Part shown: positions 1 to 60,466 of the stretch, piece by piece
Numbering within the stretch: the first letter of the stretch is position 1
Layout: each line of letters starts with the position of its first letter
NCBI GenBank assembly: GCA_000091205.1
Contig: AP006494.2
Length of the DNA: 64,000 nucleotides
Strand: one strand, 5' to 3'
Origin: Cyanidioschyzon merolae
Lineage: Eukaryota
Program-made: the position numbers and the translations under genes
The notes under the pieces: generated by a model
Database searches by the model: none
What the model was told of the DNA's origin: nothing
The model's input: only the letters and a program-made list of their open reading frames with translations

Positions 1-699
1 CAATCTCACATAGGTGCATGCTGTCTGTATCTGTCTTTCATCCTATGTATACATATGATGATGTCCACATGCATGCAGTGCGCCACTGGTACTGCACGGA
101 TCATGGCCAGATCGACTGCGGCGTGTGCGCTTGCGCGGATGCAGGTATTTTTTAGTGGACAAAACGTTTACATAGGCCAGCGTTCTCCGATTATGTGCTT
201 TTTCCTCTCTTTTTGTGGGGGTTCAGTGCACGGTGAAGTATCCATCAAACGCCCTACCTCCAAGTTACACTACCCATACTTCTTCTCGGATTTTCAGGTC
301 GTTTCATACGTTCTGTTTTGTGCCTAGTACCTGCCCTAATCATCCGCCTTTGCGCTTGAACCGCTGGGGCGGATAGTTCATAGAGACAGAACGGCGTTGC
401 CGTACCACACAGAGGACGTCAGCTCGAGGCGCGCGGATGCAGGTGCCTGCGCGATCGCTCGGCAGCGCGGCGCGAATGCCGTCCGGATTGGCGCATTGCT
501 CCGTGTGGGCTGCGGCACGCACGCACGCACGCACGCACGCTTGATTCCTGTATATCAGGCACGCATACAGGGCACGTCCTCGGGTGCAGCGTCTCGACTC
601 GTGTTGATTGTCGAGCAAACGCTGGCTGCAGCTCTTTGGCAGAAACTTCAGTATTTCACTCAGTTCAGAGTGCTTTTGCTTCGCTCTAGACGCTGCAGG

Positions 700-3530: not shown

Positions 3531-4722
3531 GAGCGCCCACCGGCGCATTCTGGAATCGTCGACGTTTGATGCGCGATGCGACGATCGCAAAGCATTTCAG
3601 TGGACTATGGATCATCTTCGAAAGCGGGATACACACTGACTTACGGAAAAGCGTCCATCATGCTGCTGCACCCTATCTCCGATATCCGTTACCTGTTCCC
3701 GGGTGTACTGGTTATTCTCGCAGGTTCCACTGTGCGCCTAAGCTGTCTTGAGCACCCGCAATAGCGCCTGTGCCGTTGAAGCAAATGCATCACGGGGACA
3801 GAACGGCTTTGACCTACAACTGAGGGCGTCGGCTCAAGGCGTGGTTTGCGCGATACGGGTCCGGAGTACATAATCATGCTGGGGGCCAGCAACCTGCGCA
3901 GACTGACCTGCTGCCCGCGGCAGCGCGAAGCGATAGACTAGGAGTCCACTAGAATCAGAGCGACGCTAAGACGCAGCCTAACTGCCCCTAATCCCGGAAT
4001 AAACTGCGTTCCGGACGAGTTGTTCAGATCTCGGCACGGCACCCGCGAATGGGTGGAACATGAAGCAAGCGCCTGGCGGACTCGTCCGGCCCGCGGGACC
4101 TTCCGCCTAGGAGGCAAACTTTCGACAATATGGAAACCTTTTCCCCTGTTTTAAAGTTTACCGTAGAGGGGGAAAGAAATATGTATATACATGCTGGTGC
4201 ATCGAGAGTCTCTGTTCCTTATTCTTAATAGGGCGCTCGATACGCGCACCTGGGAGATCTGGCTGTAACGAGACACGACGCGCATCTCGCCTTTGAAGCG
4301 AAACGCGATGCTCATAGTTAGCGTGCTAGTCTATCGTACAAGATGTATTTGCGTTACAGTCGTAGCCAAGTATAGTGTCTCATCTCAGTTTTGTTTCAGC
4401 CTTCAAGTGGCTATGTTCAAGTGATCATTACGAGTTTATAACATACGCGTTCAAAGTGGGTTCTTCATCAAAACTAAAGATAGAAAGTTCTGGAAAAGGA
4501 AGTAGAGGATCCTGGAGGGTGGCTGTAGCCGGCCGCCGAAAAACAAAACGAAAAACAGTGCCGAGCAAAGAGCAACAGGTGATGACGAAGAAGCAGGAGG
4601 GTGAGCCAGACATCAGAAGCTGCCCGAGAGACGACAGTACGACGAGATGGATATGAAAGCGTTTCCTCTACGCCTAATCAAGGATTCCTACGAGCAAAAG
4701 TAGCAAGAGGCTATCAGAAACC

Positions 4723-6700
4723 GTGCCGAGTCGTACTCCAGCAATGTTTGTAACGCATCTTTTCGGACTAATGCATTTGGTTAATGGGATGGAAGAGGAC
4801 GTGACGGATATCATAGCAGTCGATATTCCGGGTGAAATTTTCAACAAGACCTTTATTCGTCACATGATGCTTGGCACCGGGGAAACGTCGAGGAGAAATG
4901 AACGAGTACACGCCTTACACGAAAATCACGCCGAATACCGCTTCAACGGTACTAGATACAGGGGCGACGCAGATATTTACCGCCACGGGACAATGAAGTA
5001 CCTCACGAATTTGAAGAACCAATTCACCATGAACATGAAAGGCTTCATGATACGCTCCATCTTTGCGCTGTACCCGGGCCTGTCTCGCAGAGGGACACAG
5101 GCCATCATCGACGGCATCGCGAACGATAGTAAGAATGAACAGAAGATCGAATTCGTCGACGATAAGACATCACACAGGAGAAAGAACGAGGCTTCTGTAA
5201 TCCGTGCGGCAATTAAAGAGCACCGTGCAGTCTTGGGCCTTGTCAACCCAGCAGAGAAGCTAAGAAATATGAAAAAAGATGATGAAAGATGTTATCCCCT
5301 AATCCTGCGCTATTTCGTGTTTCTGGAGCGAGAACTCGAACGCATGCTGGAGATGACGCTGAATGAGGAAGAAAATGAAGAGTCGCAGAAATGGAAGGCT
5401 GTCCTAATGGAGAACCGCTTCAATGTCGTTCCGTTATGCAACATCAAGTCACAATTTGTGGCTATAGACTCCAGCGTCCTTCATGGCATGATCAGGGAGA
5501 TCTGTCCGGAGTTCGATGTTAGCAGGAAGGAGAACTCCGGTGAAAACCGGGAGACGTACTGGAAGAATATCCTCGATTTCAAACGTCTCAAAACGAGTAA
5601 GCAAAAGGTATTCACTGGGTTGATCGAAACCGATGGGGTAACCATTTGTGGACACTATCGGATGTTGATGGCAGATCGTCCTGGTCCGTCTTCGATATCG
5701 CCCGTGACGAAGCATGAAATAAAGAAGAAGGTGGATCCTTCGACGCAGCAGATGCAGGAGAACGACTTTCGTTGTCGGCCTTGACCCCGGGAACACGAAT
5801 ATCGTTACAATCGCAGGACCCACGCGAGAGGAAGATGGTATCAAAGGCAAGTTGCGTCAGAAAGACATACGGCTTTGGAAGTTCTCAAGAGCTGGGTACT
5901 GCCGAGAGTTTGGGTTAATGAATCCAAGGATATAGAATGAGAAGCGGAACGCAGGAGTGAAGAAGCACCTAGAAGCGATCGGTAGCATAGCGAGCCGCGA
6001 AGCAAACTGTCAAGCTTTTCGGGATTTGATAGAAACTCAAGCTGCTCATCAGGAGAAGCAGTGGAAAGAGTATACAAAGCCCCGGTGGGTTCGTCAGCGT
6101 ATGAACTTGTACGGAGGGAGACAGCGTACATTCACCAACTCCTTCAATGATTGTACGCCCTCAAGAAGGACACGAGTCAAAGGCTCGTAGTGGCTAGCGG
6201 AGCAGGGCGCTGGGCGTCCAGAAAATGGAAGCATACCGGCTCCATCGACAAGAGCGTACAAGGAGTGCGCAGAGCGTTTTGTCACTGAATTGGTGGATGA
6301 GTTCCGAACGGCCTACGTGCATCATGAACGGGGGTTTACACTCCTGCCAGTCGAGATGGATGGTGCCAACCGAACGCTGAGGATACAGAAAAGTACGGAG
6401 AGCGGACAGAGCACAAAATGACACAGTGAGCGCGAGTTCGAGGACTCCTTGCACTGGTGAGTACAAGCGGTGGCATGGAACGCATGCAGTTTGTGGACCT
6501 GGACTTCAACGCTGGTATTGATATCAGGGGATATGAGGTGCTGGCGCGGAGACCCGAGGAGCTGACACGAGCGAACTTTGTGGGCAGCTTCTCAGGGTCG
6601 AAGCGCACAAGGAGAAACTGAAGCTTACAGCAATCGGCCGGTCGAAAAAGGCTGGGAGGCGTCTGCAGGTCGGTGTATATAAATACACGCGACAGACGTA
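4723..6700 (+). mobile_element. Degenerate Fanzor/TnpB-like (IS605 OrfB / OMEGA-family RuvC nuclease) element, copy A. The coding region is broken by at least one 1-bp frameshift and several in-frame stops, and a conserved terminal region extends about 80 bp past the stop.
   Basis: Frame 1 (4723..5784) gives a 353-aa N-terminal ORF. After a 1-bp frameshift near 5765-5770 the translation continues as [19 protein letters not shown], a RuvC-I-like motif of the GIDPGxxNxxT type. Stops fall at 5934, 6188 and 6419. A frame-1 segment near 6484 reads MQFVDLDFNAGIDIRGY, matching the RuvC-III consensus DxDxNAAxNI. The ORF stops at 6616. The sequence ...gaaactgaagc..aaaaggctgggaggcgtctg... runs on to about 6690 and is conserved in two other copies. 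The region is AT-richer than the flanking gene islands. Confidence 0.45.
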
Positions 6701-8693
6701 CGGTACGAAAACACGTCGATTAATGCCTGTACGCCCGGTGTACGCATTGAGGGGGCTCTTCGTTCGTTTGACGGAACGTTCGCATTGAAAGGAATTCCCG
6801 CTTGTGCGCTTGCTATCGGCGCTCGGAGAGTTCAGCCGGGAATGCGTGCTGCAGAAGCGCGCGCAAAAAGTTCATAATGCATATAGGAACAAAACTGCCC
6901 ACAATGTGTGTTGATAAGAGGTAAACATAATAACATGGGTCATGCTGGTGAGTTCGAGACGCTTTCTCTGGGACACGGGATAGGTGATTCGCAGCGTTGC
7001 AGAGTATGGTTGTCTTGTAAGTAACAGAGTTCTTCAGTGGCTGTTGGAGCGCTGCATCCACTGCAGACTGCAATCTCACCCGATCGCCTGCTTGGGAAAG
7101 GCCGACTTGTTTCCATGTTGTTCAAATTTTCCAAAAGACTTGTGAAACGTTGTCATGTCGATTCGTCATAAAACCGGTAAAAATCAAACAGTAAGTTGGA
7201 GGTACAGGTCGCGAACCCAACGAGCTGGCACGACGTTGCAACGATGTGTAAGCACGCGTTGAGCGGTTACCTCTTGCCTCTACGGTTTTTTGGCAATGAT
7301 TTCCGGTGCAATGGTCAACGAGTGCTCGTTCCATGTAAACATTGCTTATCCTGCCTGGTGGATAGCAACATCATGAAGCCAGCATATTCTAGGTGCAGGC
7401 GCGGGTACCTGCCGAAAAATGACGCTAGAGTCAGATGAGTGTCCCTAGGTGTCAATGCAGCAGGCCGCTAAAGCATTTCGTTTCGCTTGGTCTTCGAGAA
7501 AGAGACGCAGGGCATGTCCATCTGCATGACCAGCGGTTGCAATTGCATGCACCGGAGGTTGCATCCACAGGTCAATACTCAAATCCAGGAGCAGCAGCTT
7601 CCGAATGGTGGATGAAAAACGCCAAAGTCAATGCCAGAGACGCGCTGAAAACCGTGTTGATGGACGGGATGTGTACACGTGATCTCAGATCTCGATCAGG
7701 TTCCACGAAATGCTCCGTTCCTGTTTTTGTGTCGATTTCGCCCCAAAACCTGCATCCGAACCATGTATACAGTGCACAGAATGAGGGCAATCATGTTTAG
7801 CTGCTGCGCGTAACGTCCAAACCGCTGCCCAAGATGCCTGTGAAAACTGCTTCACGCTAGTTTTTCGTTCCCTGGCGCCGCAGTTAACGAGCCAGACGGT
7901 AGAATACTCGAGTTCCACGAGTGGTTGAACCAATGCGCCTGCCCTGGCGTTTGCGATCGACCAGTATCCCTCGGGAATGCGCTTCAGGCGGCTTAAGTTC
8001 GCTCCTTTTCACTTGCACATCCTCGCATTTCGTTGCGATCGGTTGCGTCGAGTTGTGAGCACATTTGCCGAATATAATCCGTACTGCGTCTGCAGCTTGT
8101 GCATTTGCTACCTGCTCGTCCAATGTCACCACAGTAGCCAGGTTCCGTGCGGTCGCGTCGGAGAATCTCCAGCTCGCTGGACGGACAGAAAGCCCGGCGC
8201 CGCTCTCTCTCGTAGTTTGTTCCTCATCTCGCCATCTTTTCAATACGTTTCAGCGGCAAATGTACGGCATAGATGAGGCATCACACGACAACAGTCTCAA
8301 AGTTTGAATCAACGGTACGCTTTAAAGATGTAGAGCACGATGTGTTCAAGATTTATCAGCTTTCGTCGACCGCATTTGTTTCAATTCATGTATCACATTG
8401 CGGAAAACAAGTCGTTTTCGTTTTTAAAAGAATTCAGAGCGGCAAGCAGCCTCGAAAGTGCCAGGGTCTGGCGCCGCCTTCTCCGCTGCTGAGTAAGCAA
8501 GAGCGTTTGCACCTGTCATCACGCTCCAGAACGAACACTTACGTGTCAGGCGTGCCTTTCGGTCTCGCGACGGCATCTTGACCTTTCTCGCGTACTTTGA
8601 TCATCAAGCGCTTCGGAGGCGGTCAGCGCGCTTTCATAGGGCACGGCCGTACGCAGGTTCATGAGTCGGGCGACGTGGAGACCAACCCGCATC

Positions 8694-10037: not shown

Positions 10038-10685
10038 ACCGAACCAACGTCAAGGTAGTGTACCTTTCGTACCTGCGTCAGGCGTTCCGGGCACTTGAAG
10101 CGATGCCGCCGGCGCAGGCGCAGCACCGCTTGTGTCCATTTTTGTATCCAAACACCGTTGTTCGGTACGGCAGTTGCGTACTCGCTGAAGCTACGTATGG
10201 AGTCAGGTGCACCGAACCAGACTCCCTAGTACAAGGGATTTCTATAGAAGATCAGGAAAGAGACCCCGGAACTTGTAGAGATCAGCTCAGATTCAAATGG
10301 CCTCGGAGGAAAGTTGTCGTCGACGACAGAGGTCAGAGCGCTGTGGCGACAGAGGCACTGCGGGCGCTTGACCTACAGTGGGCGCCTCCTGCGGCGCAAC
10401 CAGCGTTGGCGCTGCTGTTGCCCTCCAGATAAAGACCGGTTTTGGATTGCCATTGCGGGCGTTGGCTTGGCGCAAAGTTTATCCGACGCGGACCGAAGTC
10501 TCGTCGTCGGTTTGGGCTCTAAAATGGATGCGCAGGCGAGCCTGCTGCCGGGAGCGGTGCTGGATGGCACGCTGAAGGAGCTCGGCAGCCAAAGCGAAGC
10601 CTCGACGTAGGCCGCGCTAGCCTGCATCGTTCCAAAAGAACGGTGCCGTGGTCGACCTGCACCTGCCTCGCCTCAGCATCTACCG

Positions 10686-13367
10686 TCACTGAGACGGTGC
10701 GTCTGGCGCGAATGCCTCCATTAGGGCGCGGACGCGTTCAGCATCGACACCGACCGCACGGCGTTCCTCCACGGAGTAGTGGCGATGGAGGACAGCAACA
10801 AATTCGCTTAGCACTTCTTGTACGTTTTCCCGCAAGATCTCGGTCAGGACTCGACTTCCATGTGGTCCAAAGAGACGTTGCCAAAAATCCAGGATTTGCC
10901 GTAAAGCAACAGGTTGCGTTTCGAGGTTCGGATCGATGGGGACGCGGTCAAAACGCAGCAGAACGGTAGCCCAGATCTCTCGAACGCAATCGACCGTTGC
11001 AGTAGTGCCAGCTTCCCCCTTCAGAGCGGCAACATTGCTGGATGCCGCCACCTCAGCGAGAAAAACAAGTAGAGGCTGTAAAAGTTCTCGAAGTGCACGA
11101 AATACCACAGCTTCGTATGCAGCTCGGAGCTCGTCTCTTAAAGTTTCCTTCGAGTTGAGGTCCATACGTTTTGGAATGAGGTCTCGCACAGAGCCGAACA
11201 GATGACGAAGACTCACCTGACCTCGAATGATACGGGAAACCCCTGCGCGGAATTCGTCAAACGATAAATATCGGAGTTGTCGCTCTTGATCCACGATATC
11301 GAGTTGCTCAAAGAGCATAAGATTTTGGTGCAAAATCAGCAGCTGCTTGAGATAGAAAAGCTCCGCACTGTCACTGGTGGCGGCATGCGGATCCAGACGA
11401 GGCGAACTCAGCGGGCTGCGTTGGACACTGCCCTGTGTTTGACCAGGCGCCGAGGCTTTTCGCAAACTCGCTAGCGCTAACACGGAACTCTTGTCGGGTT
11501 CAAGGCTCTCTCTAGAAGCCGGCGGCTCTAGCAATGCAAGCCTCCTAGCTGCCGTTTGCAGATTTCGAATACAAGCTTCGATGGCCTCTCGGGCGAGACC
11601 CGCGAACACCAGGGCGTCAATGCGACCATGGAGAAGTGCCAAAACCTGAAGCGTAAGCAGTGTTGCTCGATAGACCGCCGACGACGGTGTACTAGTCACT
11701 GGCTGCGTGTTAGGGCCCTCCAGTGACAACTGCTGTGGCCCATGTCCCCGATTAGGACGTTGGAAATGAGCGTAGAGAGCCTGCAGGTCTCCGTCTGATG
11801 GCTGAAAACGGAGAATTTGATCACGAATGAATAACTGCGCTCGATAGATTGTGCGCTCACGGGTGTCCGCCAATAACGAAGTAACCGGCTCTGTAAAGCA
11901 TGACGCAACCAGATCTGAAGTCGAACGCGAAAGCTCAGTTTCCATCGCTTCTTTCTGCAGAAAATCAATGCATCGAACGAGCGCGTCAAGATCACTTTCC
12001 TGCAGCACTCGCGGCAGAATGTAGATCGAGATAAGGTCAGCGATTGATCGCAGCCACTGACGGAGCGCAGATAAGGGTTGCGCTTTTGCCCCAAGAGATA
12101 CACGAAGCAGCATATCCTGGGTAGTCTCGGATGAGGGCAGCATCAGAGCCTGAAAGAGCTGGAGCTCCATGGTACAAACTTTAAGCAGCATCGTCGTTGT
12201 CGAACGTGCTGCGAGATCCAGCTCTTCAGCGCTTGCAGCAAGTCGTGCCTGCTCTTGGGCCAGCGGAAGCACGAGTCGTCGTCGTTGCTCCACAAAAAGC
12301 ATCTCGCATTTTGCGAAGAACTGCATGGTCTCAGGAGAATCGGCGGGTGCCAGGTTACAGATGGCATCCATGAACTGGCGAGTCTGCTTGCTTAGCTGCC
12401 GGAAGCGAAGGTTGACGATTGCATCTTCGCGATCAGGAGCTTGTAGCCGTCGCTGGTCGGCAGGTAATCGGGAAAGCTCCATAGCAAGGCCTGACGTTAG
12501 GTGTCTCACCAGGACTCCAAGATGCGAACAAGTGAGCTCTCGCGCTCGCTGCAGGATTTTTTCGAGCCGGTCATGTTCCGTGGCGCTCCAAACGCTGTTG
12601 CTGCTGTTGCTGCTCCCGTGTGCTGCAGCCAGTTCCGCTGAGTGTGCGAGAGCACCGCTGTGCTGCATACGCTCCTGGCACATACCCAACGCAACGAGCA
12701 CGTCGTGAATATCGTTACCTACACCGTCCGCATCCAACGAAGAGGTTCGAAGCGAGGCCATCTCGACCGTATCCAGCTTCTGACTTAAGCGCTCCAATTC
12801 TTCCCATAACTCCAAGCGCTCACGCATGCTTTGTGCTTTTCGTTCCAGCACCGTCTTCTTTGTGTACGCGTCCTTGAGTGTAGCTCGAAACATCGAGAGA
12901 TCTTTTTGTGCTTGCGTGCAGCGAGTCTCCATTTCCTCAAGAGTGGTTAGGAAACTTTGTACTTGCTCGAGGGCGTTCCGCACTCTCTCCAGATCCACTT
13001 CTATGTCGTGCTGAATGCGTTCGAGAGCGCTGCGTCGTACGTCCTCTAGCTGTAGATCAATCACGTCGAGTTCGGTGCCGAGAGCCGATTCTTGTTCAGG
13101 CGTAAAGTCTCCGGATGTATCCGCTCGGAAAACGCTTGATTCCTGATCATCTTCTGCGACTGTTTCGAAGAAATCGGCCCTGCTGAAGAGCTCACGCGCC
13201 CTCAGGAACAGTTGCTCTTGAGTCTCGCGTAGTGCGGGGTCCCCGTCGTAGACGGCATCAAGAGACTCCCACCGCGCGAAGGTATCCTCTGCAACTTTCA
13301 TACAAGCAGCAAGCGGTGGAAAAGTTTCTCCTAACCTTGAAACGCGAAGGAACTGAAATATTGGCAA
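10686..13367 (-). CDS. Large coiled-coil protein, possibly a COG3/Sec34-like Golgi tethering complex subunit (identity uncertain)
   Basis: This is an 893-aa uninterrupted ORF. Its N-terminal coiled-coil segment ...CTQAQKDLSMFRATLKDAYTKKTVLERKAQSMRERLELWEELERLSQKLD... resembles the Sec34 domain pattern (CE.LL.EQ..L.....L.YFEELE.I..RLN). The rest is helical-repeat-like. Confidence 0.4.
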   Translation of the reverse strand: MPIFQFLRVSRLGETFPPLAACMKVAEDTFARWESLDAVYDGDPALRETQEQLFLRARELFSRADFFETVAEDDQESSVFRADTSGDFTPEQESALGTELDVIDLQLEDVRRSALERIQHDIEVDLERVRNALEQVQSFLTTLEEMETRCTQAQKDLSMFRATLKDAYTKKTVLERKAQSMRERLELWEELERLSQKLDTVEMASLRTSSLDADGVGNDIHDVLVALGMCQERMQHSGALAHSAELAAAHGSSNSSNSVWSATEHDRLEKILQRARELTCSHLGVLVRHLTSGLAMELSRLPADQRRLQAPDREDAIVNLRFRQLSKQTRQFMDAICNLAPADSPETMQFFAKCEMLFVEQRRRLVLPLAQEQARLAASAEELDLAARSTTTMLLKVCTMELQLFQALMLPSSETTQDMLLRVSLGAKAQPLSALRQWLRSIADLISIYILPRVLQESDLDALVRCIDFLQKEAMETELSRSTSDLVASCFTEPVTSLLADTRERTIYRAQLFIRDQILRFQPSDGDLQALYAHFQRPNRGHGPQQLSLEGPNTQPVTSTPSSAVYRATLLTLQVLALLHGRIDALVFAGLAREAIEACIRNLQTAARRLALLEPPASRESLEPDKSSVLALASLRKASAPGQTQGSVQRSPLSSPRLDPHAATSDSAELFYLKQLLILHQNLMLFEQLDIVDQERQLRYLSFDEFRAGVSRIIRGQVSLRHLFGSVRDLIPKRMDLNSKETLRDELRAAYEAVVFRALRELLQPLLVFLAEVAASSNVAALKGEAGTTATVDCVREIWATVLLRFDRVPIDPNLETQPVALRQILDFWQRLFGPHGSRVLTEILRENVQEVLSEFVAVLHRHYSVEERRAVGVDAERVRALMEAFAPDAPSQ

Positions 13368-16349: not shown

Positions 16350-16885
16350 CAAAATTGTTCCACCTTCAGGTGAGTTTCATCAAGTGCGTTTTCGCGGTGT
16401 ATAGCAGACGCGTTCGAGGTGGGTTCACTCTAAGAAATAAAAAATCCATAGGAGAGATATGGGCGAAGAAGTCGGGGATCTGCTAGGGTCGGCATCGCCG
16501 GCTGCAGGAAAACACGAAGAAATCCTCTTTTCGCTGACCATGGGGCGAAAAAGAACAGCAACAAGAGCGACGATACTCGAGGGAAGGTGTTTGCCCAACG
16601 AGATGATGACGAGATTGTAGTGGCATATATGGCACGAGTATTAGGAATTTTTGCACCTGTGAATTCAGTCAGCGTCAATGCACGCATGGAGTTTGTGACC
16701 CGACACTTCAACGATGCTATTGGTATCAGACGATGTATGGTGCTAAAGACGAGACCCTAGGACCTGCCACGATCCATCTTTGTGGGGCAGCCTCTCAGGC
16801 TCGTAGTGTGTGAGCAGAAACTGAAACGGATTGCAGGCGGTCTGTCATAAAAAGGCTGGGTGGCGTCTGTGAGTGGGTATGTTTA
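16350..16885 (+). repeat. 5'-truncated paralogous fragment (copy B) of the Fanzor/TnpB-like element family. It retains a decayed RuvC-III region and the conserved terminal about 80 bp.
   Basis: The segment 16681-16760 translates MEFVTRHFNDAIGIRRCMVLKTRP*, which matches copy A's MQFVDLDFNAGIDIRGYEVLARRP. The downstream sequence ...gaaactgaaacggattgcaggcggtctgtcataaaaaggctgggtggcgtctgtgag... aligns with 6600-6690. Upstream about 350 bp align with copy C. Confidence 0.5.
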
Positions 16886-16992
16886 TTCACTTTGTGTTCG
16901 TGGAAATGTTTCCGTTTCACTGACTGTCTTGGACCAGACATCATCCTGGGTGCTCGCATTGCGCTTCGAAAGGCCATATGACGTGATGGGGT

Positions 16993-24600: not shown

Positions 24601-25507
24601 TTCTTCGATAAGTCGGTCTCTACGTTCATCAGCCCTGAATCCATCCGCTCCTCCTCAGCTCGTGCACGGATGAGAGCGGAAAGATGAGATTCAGGCCATG
24701 GGGGTCGCGCAATGGAGACGGTAACGAAAAGGTACTCAATGAGTAGTAGACAGACATACTGAAAAGGAATCTCGGTCAAATCATCAGTATGATGCGTCAG
24801 AATCCTGAGGGAAAATGGAATGGCGTATAGCGGCCATCTTCATGCAATCCTAGACCGTACACGAGAAGGAGAAGAGACCGCCGGACGTAGAAAAGAAAGA
24901 TCCTTCCAAAGGAAACGTGCATGTACAGTAAGTAGAACGAGTCGGAGCAGAAATACCAGTCTGGAAACTTGTCAAAGCGCTCCTAGTAAAACACGTCAAC
25001 GGGGCCAAGGTCTCAGAAACGCAACATGCAGGGCGTCATTGGGGATTGCGTCGATCCGTACTCGAGAAAGCCTCGCCTAGCTTACCTCGCCTTTAAACAG
25101 CTCGTTAAGAAACTGTTCGCACGAGTTCTGGACACAGGGCTGCCAGCTGTCCATATTACTATAAGATTTTTCAATCGAACCTTTCGCGCGACAACATAAC
25201 TGTGTCCCCGGGCATAAGATGCAGTAAGACGAGAGTGTATACTCAGTGAAGAGCACGAACGCTTTCCAATAGATTTTGACACGTCGCCGCACGACGTCGA
25301 CGACGGGAACATCGAGACAGCGCCGGCGCCAGGGAGTATCAAACGAACCGCCAAAACGAAAACCGTATGCGGGTCGCTGTCGAGCGCCTCATGATGCGCA
25401 ACCTGTGAATGAAGTACCCATACCTCACTGAACCAGAAAGATGGTGACTGATCCAACGCATTCTTCGGGCGTCTATGGAGGCAAATGACGAATAGGGCTT
25501 CGCGGGA

Positions 25508-25792
25508 GTGCATGCGTTGTTACCGAGTTCAGAAGCAACAGTTCCACGAAAACGAGGCTCTCTTCATATGGTCCAAGCTCAGGATGTTACCCTCGGCCTC
25601 GGAGCAATGCACGTCGTATTCAACGGATGGACGATACACGATGTCTTCTTTGCATGTATACTTCGCTACATGGTTTTCATGAACGCAGCCCTGCAGTGCA
25701 AAGCAGACTTCCTCATGGAACCCGAATGCCCCGCCCGTCTCGAGCTGCTTTTCGACATGGTCCCTGTACGTGGCATCAGGACCATTAGATAA
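25508..25792 (+). repeat. Member 1 of an unclassified protein-coding dispersed repeat family, homologous to 37118..37456 on the minus strand
   Basis: The translation MHVVFNGWTIHDVFFACILRYMVFMNAALQCKADFLMEPECPARLELLFDMVPV aligns with MDVTSNAWTERDEFLAFSLRYVVSLTRTLQCKAEFLLGSEHALCFQKLLLDVTPV at roughly 50% identity and the same start position. Both copies lie in AT-rich, ORF-poor spacers. Confidence 0.4.
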
Positions 25793-27403
25793 CCGTGGGC
25801 GCTTCTGTTCGGTACCAAATGGCGTCCTCAGTGAGCCGTGGCTGGTGCCTGTGAGCAAATACGAGCACTCAGCCGGTGTCAAGAAGAGCACACAGGGTGC
25901 TCGTTCAATTTTTCTGGTTTACAGGAAGGGAACACAGAGAGGTTTACAGGTTCTATGGAGACCGATGGAATATCGATCTGCATGCAATTTTGTAGAACTA
26001 TGCCCGAATCGAGCAACGAGATGCATTCTTATCCGTTTACAGTAGTTGAAAAGAGAGGCATGTAACGGGCGGAAATCTCGAATAGAAGAAATCCATGGCC
26101 GTCGTCAAAGCTTTGAATCACAAGGCTAGTGCCTGCTGCCTAAGCATAAAGCTGATGAAGCTGCTCAACTTTCCCCGAGCTGGATAGCAACAAGAACCAG
26201 GCATGATGGACTTCAGAAGGGATATCAGCGAATGAAATGTCTGGGCCAGGACGCAGCTCGACTTTCGGAGCACCGCATCAGTCGGGGAGAGATACTTTGT
26301 ACGCTTCGTTCAGAGAGAAAATGAGCGCCTGACTGGCACACAGAAACGATCTTTGATGGGCGTGCATGAGACTGCGCTGAGGTTGCAAACGGTCTCGGAT
26401 GTACAAATGCAATAAGCGTGCATTCGACAACTTGTTTGGTCAGTTGGAGACGGAAATGACCGATAAGCTGCGTCGTTTGATGGTAGCCTATGGCGCTAGA
26501 CGTGCTGTAGCGTGCGGTCGCTGTATTCCGGCGACCCCGCGACGGAAGCATACAGCGAGTGCAGGAATCGATGCTGTAGGATTCCCATCAATGCGTTGAC
26601 GGCGACATTCATGCACCACGAGCACAGGTGCACGTCGGAAAATGCCAGAGAAAAGGAAACTGCAATACAGAGCGACGCGCTAGATGGTTTCCAGAAAGCT
26701 AAGCAAAAGTCATATGGCAAGGAATAGGAAAGCGAATGGCTTGCTATGTTGTAAATCAACCTGTAACCATGCGCGCAAGAACTTTTTGCAACCAGACTCG
26801 CATGCCCTGATCAGCAACCGGTAATGTATCGTGCTTCCCAAGCGTCCAGCGGCTTTGAGTCAAGCGATTTCTCGAGAAAATGGTTTCGTACTCAGCGTAC
26901 GCATTGTGCTGAAACACTGAAGGTATCTAACCAAAAAAACCAGTTGCCAGGAGAGGAACGGAGAAAGACTTGCCTCGGGTAGTGCAGTGGTAGCGCACGG
27001 CCGGGCGATCCACCAATGCTAGAGCACCTTCTATACACAACAGCAACGATTTCTCTGGGCAATTCCTGAGCAATAATGGTGTTCCATCATTCAATACCAC
27101 TGAACGTCAACTCCTGCCACAGGCAGACCTTACTTCGAGCCATCGTGCGCCAGGTTCTATGTCGGACGAGTGCCACCTGCCCGTTTTCCAAACATTAGAT
27201 GTCACACAGAGCTGGTGCCTTGAAACCTTTTGCCAATATCCTAGGACCAAGACTTACAGGCATACGCTCGCGTCTTCCGCCAGCGACGACTGAAGGACGC
27301 GTTGCTGCATTGTGCTGCGGCAACTCGGGTTACTCCGTGAAACCAACGGTTACTCATCGAATCCCTGTCAAGTAGGTTCCACAAAAGCGATCAGCTGACG
27401 AGC

Positions 27404-35821: not shown

Positions 35822-37117
35822 CTCGGCAAGCCCCAAAGCCGCACGCATCAAGGGCTCCAACTGGAACTGCCAACGCTGGCTGGAGTTCGGGACCGTTCGC
35901 GCATCTGCTTTGTTCGCCATGCGTACGATTCGCTCTGTGTTCCATCGGATCCGTCGAGGTGCATGCACATTGCACAAGTTTGTGCGAACCACAAGGCATG
36001 CTGGTGCGAATGACCAGATGGCGCGAAACGCTGAAGATGAGAATTAGACACGCAAGAGGGAGATTATGGTGCTTTTAAATAAAGCGGTCTTCGGGTCTGG
36101 AAAGTACTCGATTCCGTGAGCTCTGGCTGGTACGATGCCGCCACCGAGGCGGTGTGCGCACATTTGGAAACGACGACGCGGGTGTGCTCCTGCCAGCGAC
36201 GCACGAGATCGAAACTAGTTGGTAGATAGTGTTCACAGACGTAAAGATATGCTCAGTAGTTTCGAACAATGGAATACTGTTATTGTTCATGAAATCTTCA
36301 GGAAAATCTTCTAGGCATTTGCATAGGGCGTTGCAGCCTTGCTGGATCGCTGCGCCGCAATCGTGCATAGACGCAACCAAGGATACACGACCTCTTCTCA
36401 TGGCTAGCAGTTTGTACTCATCGGAAATCCTCGGGATTTCAGCGCAGAGCCCAACTTGACTATGGAACGATTTCCTCGAAAGCTCGATCGACGGAAAGCC
36501 GCTGGATTCTCCATGTACAAAAAACATTGCCAGATGTTGATCGAAGCATTCACGCACTTTAACAGTTGTCGGCTACAACCAAACAACGCAGCTTATCGGT
36601 CATTTCCCACATATTCCAACTCACTGAGCTAGTTCGTGAATGCACGATTTTGCGTCCGTGGAATCGAAACTGTTGGCGAGTCAGGTGCGGAGTCATGCAC
36701 GCCTATCGACGATCATTCCCGTCAGCTATTTGGAGGTTCATATTCTCTCTCCGTGGGACCTCAAAAGTATCCCACGCCGCTCGATACATTGCACACAGCG
36801 TCGCAATGCATCATGATGCCGTCACTCCATTTGCCTGTGTGCCGCCTGGCGTCCATCGTACCCGATTCTCAATGATACTGAGCCTTTGAGAAACTGGGTA
36901 ACCTCATGTATTTCCCATTCAGGTCATTGACTCTGTCTTCTTGACTCGCATATGCGGGCACAGAAGTGAGATTCTTCAAACGTGGATCCACGCGCACCAC
37001 ATAGCCCTTCGCCTCACGAAACTTGAACTGTTGAAAATGGAAATCGATGCGCGACTCAGCCCTGGGTGTCAGAAAGTGCATGCATATTGATATCTCGACA
37101 CTCTTCATGGTATCTGT

Positions 37118-37456
37118 TCACTTCTGTTCATTGCTTCGCTTCAAATGTGGAACATTGAACGAGCTCCGCCAGTGATGCTGGCGAATTCGTACGAATGTTT
37201 CGTGGTTGCTCGCAACGACTGCCCGCAGACCACTGAGTAGGTGGTAACACAGAGTAAACAGGTAGCTACGATTACGGAATATGGCTTGACACACAGGGGT
37301 CACATCCAGTAGGAGCTTTTGGAAGCAGAGGGCGTGCTCAGATCCGAGGAGAAATTCTGCTTTGCATTGGAGAGTTCTGGTCAGGGAAACCACGTAGCGT
37401 AAACTGAAAGCGAGGAACTCATCACGTTCCGTCCATGCATTGGATGTGACGTCCAT
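37118..37456 (-). repeat. Member 2 of the unclassified protein-coding dispersed repeat family (see 25508..25792)
   Basis: See the alignment given for 25508..25792; the conserved core is LQCKA[ED]FL. Confidence 0.4.
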
Positions 37457-39426
37457 TGCTCCCAGGCCGAGAGCAACTCCATGAGCTTGGACGCTCTACA
37501 GCCCGTCTCGTTCTCGGTGCGACATCGCTTCTGGACTCGCTACCGACACAAGCGCATCCGCCTCAAGCTCTCCATTTGCCATCATGGACACACCACGAAT
37601 ATTTTAATACAGTCCCCAATTTTCGGGGCAAGCGAGGCTAGAACAGCCTCAAGGTATTTCTCGCGGAGCGCTTGATACTGACTCGCATTTGATGTTTGCG
37701 GTTGGTCTGATACCTTTCGGCACCTGCGATGAAGGTGCTCCGGTCGCCGGCGTGTCAGAGAAGTCGGGGACGCGGATGTACAAGTCCCGAATCCTGCGCT
37801 CAGGCTGTAATGCATCTGCTGGACGGAGTATCACTTGTGCTGTCGAATGAATTTTTATTCGAAAAGTATCGGGAGAATCTGGACATTGCCCGCCCTGTGT
37901 ACACAGCGCTTTCGAACAGTTGCTTTCCTGGATACGTCAGGGCGAAGGAAGCTATGTGATCCGTTATAGAATGAGAATTTACTCGATTCCGAATGGTCGC
38001 CTCCATTGTATACTGTCGAATATGCTCCCCGTTGATGAATTTTTTCAGATGACCATTAAAGTGTATTCAAACTAGTCTCTCGTGGACGAAGATTACTCTC
38101 TTCTGTCCCAGTCCGGGCTATTTGCAGGACGATGCTTCTCTCTATTTTGTGGTGATTCCTTCTCCTTCCCTTTGGTTCGCTTTCTTGTTTACCCTTGGCG
38201 TCGCATTCTTTTTGTCGCTAGGCTCTATATCAGTTTTTTCCAGGGGATGCACAGGCACTGGGTAGACGGTAAGATTAGAGGTCGCCTTTGCTGCGTATGG
38301 AACAGTCATCTATTGCGAAAGTACTTTTCGTCTCCTCCTCCGTGGCGAGCACGCCCACGGATGGAATGCGCTTTTCTGCTCGATCCTGCGCACGAGCAGA
38401 GGAGCAGCGCAACTATCATTGTCTAGTGAAGTTAGAGAACTACTTGTTGAGAACCGATCTGTCAAATAGCTTCGGCGCAAATGATTTGAACCAGCTATCT
38501 ATTGATCAGCCCGCGAAAAAGTCGCTTTTGACGACAACGAAGGCGTCTTGCGCACGACTTGACCATGCACCATAGGTTGGTTCGAAGCGCAGCTTAACAC
38601 CAATCACAGCGGCGAACCCCTTGACCGCTTATCAATGATGGGCAGTAACCTTGTGCTGCAAGAGGATAGAGAAACATGGGAAGGGGAAGTCATCAATCAT
38701 TTCCGCAAAGGATGAATCGTCGAGCGACCTCGTCCGTCTCGCGATTTTTCCGGGCCGCCGCACAGCTGAATCATTTCCTGGTCTGATCTTGTCATCCTTT
38801 TCGATTACTCCTACCTTCGACTTATGGTTAACCATGCATGAAAGCATACATGCAGGTTTACGATTCACCCAAAAGAAGTCTTATTGAGTGGGACGGAAAC
38901 TCATTCCTCCTACGATGCACGTTCCTGGTTCACAACAAAACTGATGGGATGTTCGTGAACATCGACGGCCTCCAAGAGAATCGTGGGTTCTTTGTCTATC
39001 CGCCGCTCCTCATTACCATTCGTATCAAAGGTGCAGAATTTTCACAACCTGTGATTTTTTGCTAGCGTTTCTAATAGAATATATGCAATGGAATTCATGG
39101 GCAAGAAGAAATTCTTGTTGATATAGATAGATACGTTCTGTTTCCGATGCAAGACGCTCAAGATGTAGTATTCGACAGGCGTGGTTCATCCACCTGCTTC
39201 CGGTAGCAGAACTGACTTGTACACTTTAGACCGTATTGTTCAAGCTCCCAGTGGCAGCTGAAAGCCTCTCCTCCACGGCTGTCCAATACAACGCACACAT
39301 TTCTGATACTGGATACCTGCGAGACAAACAAAACGAAAACAAAAAGGTCTTCCTGATACAGGTATTCCGAAATTCGCTTTCCTTTATACAGTAGACTGGA
39401 AGCGTTTCCCTGAGCATCGCCGAACG

Positions 39427-53199: not shown

Positions 53200-53750
53200 T
53201 CGTTTTTCAATTCCATTGCGTTCCACCCGCCGGTGTGTGTTATCAGATGCTCTTTCGCTGTTTATAGCAAACGTGTTCGATGTTCGTTCATGTGAAGACC
53301 TAAAAAATCCAAGGGAAAACGATGGACATGAAAATCGGAGATCCTGGGACCCGGTCACGCCGGCTGCAGGAAAAACACGCAAAAATTCCTACGCTCGCCG
53401 ACTATCGAGCGATGCAACGGAAGAACAAGCAGAACGGAGATATGAGAGAAAAAGAGTTTGCCCGACGAGACGATTTGGAGGCAGTAGTGACAATGTGGGC
53501 ACGAGCTCTAGGAATCCTCGCGTTGGTGAGTGCAACCAGAGGCAATAGACGCATAGAGTTGGAAAGCGAGACCACAACCCCGCCATCAACACCGGACGAC
53601 GCGTGGTGCGGAAGAAAAGACCCGAGGAGCTGACGCGATCGAACCTCGTGGACAGCCTTTCAGGATCGAAGTATATAGGCCGAAACTGAAGCTTATAGCA
53701 GGCAGCCAGTCCGAAAAGTTAGGGAGGCGTCCACGAGAGGATGTACATAT
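53200..53750 (+). repeat. 5'-truncated paralogous fragment (copy C) of the Fanzor/TnpB-like element family
   Basis: The region 53560-53740 aligns with copy A 6540-6690 (...agacccgaggagctgac.cga.cgaac.t.gtgg.cagc.t.tcagg.tcgaag...gaaactgaagctta.agca...aaaag.t.gggaggcgtc...). Its translation contains DHNPAINTGRRVVRKKRPEELTRSNLVDSLSGSKYI*, aligned against copy A's DLDFNAGIDIRGYEVLARRPEELTRANFVGSFSGSKRTRRN*. A further 350 bp upstream align with copy B. Confidence 0.5.
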
Positions 53751-54305
53751 TTACCCTCTACGATCGTGAAACGTGATTCGTTTTAATGATCACATCTGTT
53801 GCTTGGGGTCAAGAATCCATTTTTTAGCGAAGACTTGTATCGTGTAAGCTATGCAGGAATACGTTTTCATAGAATTGTATGGAGCACGTTGACGACAACC
53901 GTTGTGCTGACCTGAGAGGGACGGAATTCGCGGAAAATGGCTTGGATTTTTATCCAGGTGTACTTACGATCCCCCGTCTGAGCGGATGGAACGTAGTTGA
54001 ACTGCTCAGCATTTGCGGGCGTACTTGCGCCGAGGGGGAGCTCCAATCCTACGCATCAATTCCATGTTAGACGAGTTGCAATATGCCGGCGGGTGAAGTT
54101 CTGACCCAGGACCATGAAATAAGCAAAGACTTGACAACAAGTGTCCATTCAAGCGATGACCAGGGAAGAGATCCGATTTCCTCCGTGGGCGCCAGTTCGA
54201 TCGAGGTTGTCGGAAACGTGCTTACCTGAACGAGGCCATGCGTCGGCCCCGTAACCAGGGCCAAAGCACGTCGTTTCAAGGCCTGCAGTGGAGAGCGCGC
54301 TCCGA

Positions 54306-60086: not shown

Positions 60087-60466
60087 TCTCCCCTACCTCG
60101 CCTCTGACTCTTCTTCTTCTTCATTTGCTCCTCTTCGCTCGATGCTCGACGAGAGGAGGAATCTCTCGTCTTATTCCTGCCGCCGGCGATGGAGGCCCTC
60201 CAGGATGCTTGAGTTTTAGATCCATGCCTTTCACTTGGGTTTTCCATTTCTTCAAACGAACGCACTTCGAATGCATCTGCAATGAACCGCGAAAAGCCTG
60301 TCACACCGGTGTCGGGTACGCGCGAGATTCACCGCATCGCTAACCGAATCCGGCAAGCGAGCGCATCTTCATTTCGAGCACCGCTGAGGCCAGGCCTTGT
60401 AGAGCTCGAGTTCTGGGGCTGCGAACGCGTCGCTGGTGGGAAAGTCGCCACCAAGCAGGGCTGGTT

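Follow-up and report, generated by a model that had tools for sequence, protein, structure and literature searches.

A decayed Fanzor1 gene of a multi-copy family in a 64-kb window of Cyanidioschyzon merolae DNA

Fanzor1 proteins are eukaryotic RNA-guided DNA endonucleases of the TnpB/Cas12 type. Their RNA-guided mechanism has been published (PMC10432273, PMC11423790), and a report of 2013 already recorded them from stramenopiles and algae (PMC3627910). Yoon et al. 2023 (PMC10711439) give as Fanzor1 signatures a DPG motif in RuvC-I and a rearranged RuvC-II glutamate, with a spacing of six residues between this glutamate and the start of the zinc finger, and a CCCC zinc finger is common to the solved Fanzor1 and TnpB proteins (PMC10432273). 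Characterized examples include SpuFz1 of Spizellomyces punctatus (8GKH), PpFz1 of Parasitella parasitica (9CF0), and GtFz1 of Guillardia theta (9CER). Fanzor1 can also be the sole ORF of a transposon, as in the Chlamydomonas elements CRe-1, 2, and 3, which are nonautonomous, Fanzor1-only Helitron2 elements that insert after TTTT (Bao & Jurka 2013, PMC3627910).

Our analysis of a stretch of 64,000 nucleotides (the window) established that positions 4445 to 6689 of its plus strand hold a decayed Fanzor1 gene of the TnpB/Cas12 superfamily, belonging to a multi-copy family. It is very likely that about 3588-6795 represents a dead copy of a mobile element of ~3.2 kb, the sole gene of which encoded the Fanzor1 protein. 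Genes of this kind have been described before, and the family is an ordinary further member of Fanzor1. The first-pass annotation had proposed a decayed, multi-copy pseudogene of a Fanzor/TnpB-type RuvC nuclease, and family profile, PF07282, and fold search agree in bearing this out; its description of the family as uncharacterized was not entirely right, since Fanzor1 has been published since 2013 (PMC3627910).

Identity and decay of the gene

4445 to 6689, plus strand: decayed Fanzor1 ORF of ~748 codons (frame-aware alignment, family HMM in three frames)

The Fanzor1 identity is carried by the family profile, since the protein stitched together from the window copy, when searched alone, matched none of the Pfam models or PDB chains. 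We collected 54 close homologues and, at E ≤ 1e-3, 2,258 homologue cluster representatives; more than 336 loci are on hand for comparing 3' UTRs. In the PDB, a profile of 98 homologues matched Fanzor1 chains exclusively (9cf0, 2.6e-23; 8gkh, 8e-16; 9cer, 8.9e-10), and PF07282, the Cas12f1-like TNB domain, was matched by 22 of 70 family members (best E, 2.1e-8). Both a PDB match and a usable AlphaFold model required the deeper alignment: the profile of a shallow alignment of 17 sequences found no match in the PDB, and the model derived from that alignment was unusable (pLDDT, 39.6). Against the six-frame translation of the window, the family HMM detected three frame segments of the 4445-6689 relic with E values of 6e-65, 1e-46, and 9e-10.

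The fold was examined on the intact relative P0047, which is 36% identical to the window copy, rather than on the window copy. Its AlphaFold2 model (pLDDT, 87.4; pTM, 0.85) displays the bilobed REC/WED/RuvC/TNB fold, and in a Foldseek search of the PDB with this model the first seven ranks were all Fanzor1 (E, 8e-17 to 3e-14; TM, 0.52 to 0.72), followed by Cas12o and Cas12f at a much weaker E of ~5e-4 and a TM of ~0.2 to 0.35.

A frame-aware alignment to the near-intact relative P0002 plus the tail gave 56% amino acid identity end to end and located seven frameshifts (4605, 4762, 5768, 6151, 6227, 6364, and 6582) and three in-frame stops (4701 TAG, 5933 TAG, and 6427 TGA). Comparison of the N terminus with the relative P0017 furthermore revealed that the ancestral start codon, ATG, is now ACG (4445-4447). 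With the start codon lost, seven frameshifts, and three stops, the window copy cannot make a protein, and it is a fixed, dead transposon relic. An orthologous locus in a second sample (L083), 98.9% identical and free of indels, carries the same lesions. A 353-aa ORF at 4723-5784 does exist, as annotated earlier, although it is not the N terminus of the protein, the true start lying ~93 codons upstream at 4445. The 1-nt frameshift placed near 5767 was confirmed at ~5768, with the RuvC-I reading resuming at 5771; the stops reported at 6188 and 6419 are wrong-frame artifacts past earlier shifts. The region, called an AT-rich spacer, is only mildly AT-richer (GC, 0.50 versus 0.54 for the window).

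The absence of any Pfam or PDB match for the stitched protein alone would suit another origin, in which the RuvC motifs are fortuitous and what is repeated is the 3' portion of some other class of transposon, either LINE ORF2 or the helicase of a Helitron. The profile, PF07282, and Foldseek matches rule this out, leaving it a negligible probability: the full-length profile and fold matches to Fanzor1 span REC, WED, RuvC, and TNB, the catalytic columns are invariant in the family alignment, and the full-length relatives, of 600 to 700 aa, comprise this protein and nothing else. It is also highly improbable that the gene still functions and that introns, RNA editing, or programmed frameshifting take care of its lesions. 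Introns occur in the Fanzor genes of some eukaryotes, and the L083 orthologue is conserved at 98.9%; however, this identity is equally high across the noncoding flank. Moreover, ten separate lesions are spread over conserved domains, and at each of them the coding alignment continues directly from one side to the other, leaving no room for an insert. The ATG is gone, and a conserved RuvC-III arginine is mutated, whereas the adjoining host genes are long uninterrupted ORFs.

Catalytic motifs and the zinc-finger region

5771 to 5800, plus strand: RuvC-I motif, with the catalytic Asp codon at 5783-5785 inside the DPG signature
6290 to 6316, plus strand: RuvC-II motif LVDEFRTAY, with the catalytic Glu codon at 6299-6301
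6490 to 6525, plus strand: RuvC-III motif FVDLDFNAGIDI, with the Asp codon at 6502-6504

The three RuvC motifs lie where the first-pass annotation had placed them, and all three catalytic codons of the D-E-D triad are kept in the window copy. For RuvC-I, which reads GLDPGN in the window copy, the family alignment of 98 sequences has D in 98, P in 92, and G in 98, and the RuvC-II glutamate is present in all 98. This glutamate occupies the rearranged position: it is E593, and C1, which aligns with the CxxC of SpuFz1 and PpFz1, falls six residues later in column 600. RuvC-III, spanned by MQFVDLDFNAGIDIRGY at about 6484-6534, has the family consensus NRDxNAAxNI (D in 95/98); in the window copy, the conserved arginine preceding the aspartate has become leucine (6499-6501).

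The zinc finger is where the family departs from its relatives. The CCCC set is missing from the alignment, in which Cys is found at C1 in 11 of 98 sequences, at C2 in none of 98, and at C3 in 70 of 98, with no consistent C4. In the window copy, the region reads VHHERGF ... LLALVS, and VHHERGF, right after RuvC-II, takes the place of the first CxxC. The absence of CxxC from this copy had therefore been noted correctly, yet it is no sign of decay, since a whole clade of apparently intact proteins of 600 to 700 aa lacks the CCCC zinc finger. As PF07282 is still matched by 22 of 70 members, the TNB domain persists without its metal ligands. In the TNB region, His/His/Cys residues (THHE...C, LLWC) might provide a different metal site. 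The lack of the finger across the clade means that the nuclease activity of even its intact members is putative.

Compared with the characterized Fanzor1 proteins, the family is similar in full-length profile and fold, in the D-E-D triad, the DPG motif, and the shifted position of the RuvC-II glutamate, in its size of ~600 to 700 aa, in its residence as sole ORF in a eukaryotic mobile element of many copies, and in having relatives in giant-virus MAGs. It differs in that the window copy is a pseudogene, in the loss of the CCCC zinc finger from the TNB domain throughout its clade, and in its sequence, which is only 12% to 15% identical to the solved Fz1 proteins. TnpB of IS200/IS605 (ISDra2) and Cas12f belong to the same superfamily, to which both the PF07282 matches and the next-best folds point. 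In contrast to these proteins, which have D-hydrophobic-G, the window family has DPG and a shifted glutamate, and it combines a eukaryotic host with the lack of both TnpA and a zinc finger.

The repeat unit and its copies

3588 to 4444, plus strand: noncoding leader of ~855 bp, included in the repeat unit and preceding the ancestral ATG
6690 to 6795, plus strand: probable decayed 3' UTR and right end, placed with low confidence by alignment to the 3' ends of relatives
16357 to 16870, plus strand: internally deleted mini-copy, which may reach about 16975 (GCGCTTCGAAAGGCC from 16961)
53220 to 53731, plus strand: second mini-copy, with the same deletion junction
24948 to 26914, plus strand: older, more decayed Fanzor1 ORF relic (family HMM, E = 3.5e-5, 2.2e-15, and 3.9e-10; tblastn)
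36476 to 38051, minus strand: older, more decayed Fanzor1 ORF relic (family HMM, E = 1.2e-8, 2.8e-22, and 0.0046; tblastn, 5e-12)
158 to 433, plus strand: solo leader fragment, the first ~260 nt, following TTTTTT (nhmmer, E = 3.4e-42)
10372 to 10693, plus strand: internal leader fragment (nhmmer, E = 3.3e-8)

On sequence similarity, the repeat unit appears to run from about 3588 to 6795, including an 855-bp noncoding leader, a feature of the window unit that sets it apart from known Fanzor1 loci; the extent of 4723-6700 assigned before was too small. Similarity to relatives climbs above background at about 3590, and an nhmmer profile constructed solely with metagenome loci of relatives matched the leader at 3588-4478 with an E value of 2.4e-203. 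The leader was considered as a hidden gene and rejected, having no shared ORF and no 3-periodicity (0.196/0.189/0.197, versus 0.079/0.168/0.09 for the coding control). A structured RNA is equally unsupported, as the leader has no match in Rfam and its consensus fold is no better than those of column-shuffled or reverse-complement controls. Since the leader is as conserved as the ORF (71% to 74%), its conservation reflects common descent.

The window contains at least eight relics of the family, i.e., at least seven in addition to the 4445-6689 copy. The two loci previously listed as further family members are indeed related. Rather than 3' remnants of complete genes, however, they represent a single mini-element with an internal deletion, present twice. 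In the copy at 16357..16870, the leader end and the first ~65 codons are fused to the last ~75 codons, and the copy at 53220..53731 aligns with 16357-16867 across 518 bp at 68% identity.

The 3' end, mobility, and a possible mechanism

6582 to 6689, plus strand: true C-terminal coding tail, out of frame after the frameshift at 6582 and holding the 6619-6690 stretch

The 70 to 80 bp past the apparent stop had been taken as a conserved noncoding stretch encoding an omega-RNA scaffold and the right transposon end. The conservation was confirmed, whereas the stretch proved to be coding in the ancestral frame. As the apparent stop at 6619 follows the frameshift at 6582, and the ancestral ORF continues to 6689, the sequence conserved beyond that stop is the authentic C-terminal tail of the protein. 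This tail, GQLLRVEAHKEKLKLTAIGRSKKAGRRLQVG, is matched in many relatives, whose C terminus reads ...GQPLKVELYEKKLEAVVGGRSKKxGRRLHVSWRxxx before the stop. The three loci share ~240 bp of 3' end far in excess of chance, with 72% identity between 6430-6665 and 16632-16869 (E = 2.5e-30) and 69% between 6419-6663 and 53488-53731 (E = 1e-22).

Beyond the true stop, younger metagenome relatives carry a structured 3' UTR of 60 to 75 nt, consisting of a small GGCG...CGCC hairpin, in which no covariation was found, and a terminal hairpin of 9 to 19 bp with covarying arms; similarity among the copies stops a few nucleotides past it. Of 55 copies, 39 (33 distinct sequences) have a terminal hairpin of at least 9 bp, and true arm pairs fold at -15.96 kcal/mol, compared with -9.62 kcal/mol for chimeric pairs (p = 2e-9). 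Against shuffled sequences, the 3' UTRs of L048 and L030 reach z values of -4.8 and -3.9, respectively. The three 3' regions of the window fold no better than shuffles (z = +0.9, +0.3, and -0.5), so the terminal structure has not been retained in the window copies. At 6690..6795 we find no excess folding stability (z = +0.88), the nhmmer tail profile match ends at 6674, and CGTTCGTTTGACGGAACG from 6761 and CATTGAAAGG from 6783 are, with low confidence, possible remnants of the terminal hairpin. From these alignments and folds we infer that the structured 3' UTR of the relatives, with its terminal hairpin, is the best candidate for the right end or the omega-RNA, for which no Rfam family was matched. 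Its stem-loops lie just before the 3' boundary, which is where Fz1 omega-RNAs end (PMC11423790), and a hairpin at the right end is also a likeness to TnpB elements, as is a possible target motif just before the left end. Nevertheless, the function of the terminal hairpin could be that of a DNA element in transposition instead of an omega-RNA, and the two roles are mutually compatible.

The element encodes no transposase, its leader having neither an ORF nor codon periodicity, and its end features resemble those of nonautonomous carriers mobilized by Helitron2-type or other HUH enzymes. Among 12 independent left ends, seven follow four or more T residues (binomial, 4e-8), a tract that could itself belong to the element. 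At the element ends, there are no convincing target site duplications or clear terminal inverted repeats, with weak end similarity of 7 to 13 nt seen by eye, and a 5' terminal hairpin is unsupported, with left-end folds at -3.5 kcal/mol compared with -3.8 kcal/mol for shuffles (p = 0.82). A Y1 HUH TnpA gene, which adjoins tnpB in IS200/IS605, is lacking, as the leader holds no conserved ORF.

Two other readings of the 3' end compete with the 3' UTR as omega-RNA candidate. In one, 6619-6690, or the last ~240 nt of the three window copies, is an omega-RNA scaffold overlapping the ORF 3' end as in bacterial TnpB, and the conservation reflects RNA function. Such overlap has precedent in TnpB and some Fanzors (PMC10432273); both mini-elements keep exactly this ~240-nt segment, and each window copy can form a hairpin across the ancestral stop (-11.7, -8.0, and -6.9 kcal/mol). 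Against this, the stretch codes in the ancestral frame, with a protein-level match to relatives, and variation among 55 relatives follows the codon (0.079/0.168/0.09). RNAalifold, applied to the last ~320 nt of these relatives, returned a single weak helix without compensatory changes and no conserved structure in the final 260 nt of the ORF; owing to indels, it missed the terminal hairpins. The stop-codon hairpin does not covary in relatives (p = 0.40). Identity is uniform at 71% to 74% across leader and ORF, which argues for common descent and not local constraint. Overall, we consider an ORF-overlapping omega-RNA decidedly unlikely. The other reading has better prospects, although we do not favor it: the element may be a nonautonomous Helitron2-type or other HUH rolling-circle transposon that captured Fanzor1, the 3' hairpin being a DNA signal for RepHel acting in trans and not an RNA element. 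With CRe-1, 2, and 3 as precedent (PMC3627910), the family shares Fanzor1 as sole ORF without a transposase, the terminal 3' hairpin with compensatory changes in relatives (undetectable in the window copies), a T-rich 5' flank at seven of 12 left ends, the lack of regular target site duplications and terminal inverted repeats, and variable 5' ends. However, the expected 5' terminal hairpin and asymmetric terminal inverted repeats are unsupported, the termini are known approximately, the T tract may be part of the element, and DNA and RNA roles for the hairpin do not conflict.

By analogy with characterized Fanzor1 and TnpB, the protein of the active stage would have associated with an omega-RNA, the template of which was the element's 3' end, and with flanking host sequence serving as the guide it would have cut DNA beside a short target-adjacent motif (TAM). 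The 3' module of this system may have been the 60- to 75-nt structured 3' UTR of the younger relatives, and the T-rich tract that directly precedes the element may represent its insertion target or the TAM; both omega-RNA and TAM are candidates here, unlike in the characterized systems. The data also permit a broader scenario, which is rather unlikely to hold as a whole. In this scenario, the window copy would be a relic from a large clade of Fanzor1 (>2,000 clusters at 50% identity) lacking a specific description so far, intact members of 698 to 702 aa, such as P0047 and P0051, would be active without a CCCC zinc finger, the compact 60- to 75-nt 3' UTR would be the omega-RNA, with its long covarying hairpin doubling as a right-end signal of the Helitron2/HUH type, and the left T-rich tract would be the TAM.

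The family has so far been labeled only by a DUF (PF26935, DUF8286), on which we found no literature; by sequence and fold evidence, it can now be placed in Fanzor1. Since the clade lacks a zinc finger thought to be common to TnpB and Fanzor1, its intact environmental members, with their short, hairpin-ended 3' UTR, are reasonable candidates for testing the minimal TNB domain and omega-RNA needs of a Fanzor, and the end features may help explain how Fanzor1-only elements are mobilized. For the host genome, the locus carries little weight and is best annotated as a Fanzor1 pseudogene/repeat, not as a new system. The host itself is an intron-poor eukaryote.

Fanzor1 identity of the decayed gene

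Our data confirmed the central claim of the first-pass annotation, that the locus is a decayed Fanzor-type RuvC nuclease gene; the window holds a dead copy of an already known kind of gene. On its own, the protein stitched together from the window reading frames had no match in Pfam or among PDB chains. It has 54 strong homologues among metagenome proteins, one of which repeats the 353-aa ORF at 97% identity; the homologous metagenome proteins P0047 and P0051 (698-702 aa) are intact in appearance. Searching 1.84 billion representatives with a profile gave 2,258 clusters at E <= 1e-3, most of them 560-780 aa long. When a 98-member profile of the family was searched against all PDB sequences, only three matches were obtained, every one a Fanzor1 (Parasitella PpFz1, 2.6e-23; Spizellomyces SpuFz1, 8e-16; Guillardia GtFz1, 8.9e-10), with alignments extending from REC to the C-terminus. 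The Cas12f1-like TNB domain (Pfam PF07282) was matched individually by 22 of 70 members (best E = 2.1e-8). An AlphaFold2 model of P0047 (pLDDT 87.4, pTM 0.85; 70-sequence alignment as input) retrieved Fanzor1 chains as its top seven Foldseek hits in the PDB (E = 8e-17 to 3e-14, TM up to 0.72), followed by Cas12o and Cas12f at about 5e-4.

With respect to the RuvC residues, the Asp, Glu and second Asp are present in 98, 98 and 95 of the 98 aligned family members. The first Asp sits inside a DPG motif and the Glu precedes the first zinc-finger position by six residues, the two signatures that set Fanzors apart from most TnpBs (PMC10711439). Since profile, TNB domain, fold and D/E/D motif columns agree as independent lines of evidence, we place the family in Fanzor1. 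Full-length relatives of 25-30% identity are also encoded by giant-virus MAG contigs (L084-L087, IMG/VR), and presence in giant viruses is usual for Fanzor1.

The absent CxxC, previously taken as a sign of a pseudogene, is a clade-wide trait and not decay. Unlike SpuFz1 and ISDra2 TnpB, whose solved structures share a CCCC finger (PMC10432273), the family has Cys as first to fourth zinc ligand in 11, 0, 70 and ~0 of 98 sequences, respectively. This zinc-finger loss is a lead of modest interest, as is the compact 3' UTR, ending in a hairpin, that younger relatives carry.

Repeat unit, lesions and further copies

Derived solely from relatives, a nucleotide profile matched window 3588-4478 at E = 2.4e-203, similarity to relatives climbs from background at about 3590, and the window copy compares with them at a uniform 71-74% from about 3624-3650 to 6679. 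The repeat unit therefore comprises an 855-bp leader, a 2.25-kb ORF and a short tail; the extent first proposed was too small, as the leader from ~3588 belongs to the repeat. Full-length relatives measure 3.15-3.24 kb.

Fanzor1-family features in the window
3588-4444, non-coding leader, 855 bp
4445-6689 (+), decayed Fanzor1 ORF
24948-26914 (+), older Fanzor1 ORF relic
36476-38051 (-), older Fanzor1 ORF relic
158-433, leader fragment
10372-10693, leader fragment
60240-60295, leader fragment
16357-16870 and 53220-53731, mini-copies with mutual homology across ~515 bp

The leader has no ORF common to relatives, no codon periodicity and no Rfam match, and its consensus structure is no better than column-shuffled controls. 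It may have served as promoter, 5' UTR or left-end signal. A second 5' class of relatives begins only ~210 bp upstream of the ATG.

In a frame-aware dynamic-programming alignment, window 4400-6800 matches the near-intact metagenome protein P0002 and its tail end to end at 56% amino acid identity, revealing seven frameshifts (4605, 4762, 5768, 6151, 6227, 6364 and 6582) and three in-frame stops (4701, 5933 and 6427). The previously described 353-aa ORF at 4723-5784 exists, as do the one-base frame change at about 5768, with reading resumed from 5771, and the RuvC-III motif FVDLDFNAGIDI at 6490-6525; the stops claimed at 6188 and 6419 both fall in segments whose true frame has moved. In RuvC-III, mutation of the Arg has turned RD into LD. 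Comparison with the N-terminus of the related protein P0017, MRSFSRKKTNTKRKRIEKEVEDPGG, puts the ancestral start at 4445, where the codon is now ACG, which makes the 353-aa ORF an internal segment of the gene. Window 4231-6509 aligns without gaps, at 98.9% identity, to a 2,279-bp contig from a different sample, so the pseudogene and its lesions within this interval are also present at the orthologous locus in that second sample.

The two older relics are visible only at the protein-profile level, with no recognizable leader or tail. In both mini-copies, the leader end and first ~65 codons are fused to the last ~75 codons at an identical junction, which argues that they are copies of one internally deleted, protein-less Fanzor1 derivative that was itself amplified; their common leader/N-terminal part and shared deletion junction rule out 3' fragments of full genes.

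The 3' end in the window and in relatives

About 240 bp of the 3' end are indeed repeated at 16632-16869 (72%) and 53488-53731 (69%), as had been noted, but the 70-80 bp beyond the apparent stop, proposed to be a non-coding omega-RNA stretch, proved to be coding. The C-terminus of many relatives reads ...NF[VI]GQPLKVELYEKKLEAVVGGRSKKxGRRLHVSWRxxx*, and the equivalent window peptide, GQLLRVEAHKEKLKLTAIGRSKKAGRRLQVG, is read from 6582 on in another frame, the stop at 6619 being a product of the frameshift at 6582. What is conserved past 6619 is thus the final ~36 codons of the ancestral ORF, whose end lay at about 6689. Across 55 related copies, variation in this region has clear codon periodicity (0.079/0.168/0.09), and RNAalifold found there a single weak helix with no compensatory changes. 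In each of the three window copies, a hairpin of differing sequence spans the ancestral stop (6672-6688, 16871-16893 and 53734-53760; -11.7, -8.0 and -6.9 kcal/mol), which may be chance; its homologue in relatives is a weak hairpin without covariation.

A metagenome scan yielded >336 related loci, 80 of which were fetched; they match the subfamily consensus at 80-88% identity, and most are also broken. Similarity among them runs 55-70 nt beyond the true stop and then ends sharply. This 3' UTR contains a small GGCG...CGCC hairpin, without covariation, and a terminal hairpin of 9-19 bp. The latter occurs in 39 of 55 copies and takes 33 distinct sequences. Genuine pairings of 5' and 3' arms average -15.96 kcal/mol versus -9.62 for chimeric pairs (p = 2e-9), and whole 3' UTRs of the relatives L048 and L030 gave z = -4.8 and -3.9 against shuffles. 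In characterized Fanzor1 systems, the omega-RNA has stem-loops at its end, followed directly by a guide from flanking DNA, and very short scaffolds occur (PMC10432273, PMC11423790). By analogy with this layout, the relatives' structured 3' UTR is a credible right-end/omega-RNA candidate, although it is equally possible that the structure acts purely as DNA in transposition. This structure is preserved in relatives but not in the window, where the equivalent stretches are no more stable when folded than shuffled sequences (z = +0.88, +0.34 and -0.53) and remnants of the terminal hairpin at 6761, 6783 and, in a mini-copy, 16961 are doubtful.

Two relatives carry variant ends. At L036:2390-2440, a perfect 15-bp terminal hairpin, CCGGCGAGCACGCGC/GCGCGTGCTCGCCGG, occupies the position of the family hairpin with unrelated sequence, as if the structure had been swapped wholesale; at L013:700-800, the right-end ~50 nt, including the 3' hairpin, are duplicated in tandem.

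Mobility and genomic setting

The element has no transposase gene, and examination of its ends revealed no TSDs and no convincing TIRs. At least three classes of 5' end can be distinguished, and among 12 independent left ends, 7 directly follow a T run of at least 4 (binomial about 4e-8), namely, window 158-433 and the related loci L031, L017, L075, L007, L037 and L012. This T tract could be an insertion-target preference, a TAM or part of the element. The Helitron2-type elements CRe-1, 2 and 3 of Bao and Jurka combine a covarying 3' hairpin, a T-rich 5' flank and Fanzor1-only cargo (PMC3627910). Our element is alike in Fanzor1 as only cargo, in the 3' terminal hairpin with compensatory changes of its relatives and perhaps in the T-rich 5' flank; however, neither a 5' hairpin nor asymmetric TIRs, which this type should have, are supported here, and we regard a Helitron2-type origin as possible but somewhat improbable.

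The window consists of nuclear DNA from a eukaryote, and its host ORFs are long and uninterrupted; among them are ATP synthase gamma, DnaJ, COG3, a PPR protein, CPSase, RNR small subunit and a UvrC-like protein. The Fanzor1 relic lies in the spacer that separates the DnaJ gene from the following one. The complete bacterial-type UvrC ORF at 60467-62677 encodes GIY-YIG, UvrC RNase H and HhH domains, and its product may be organelle-targeted.
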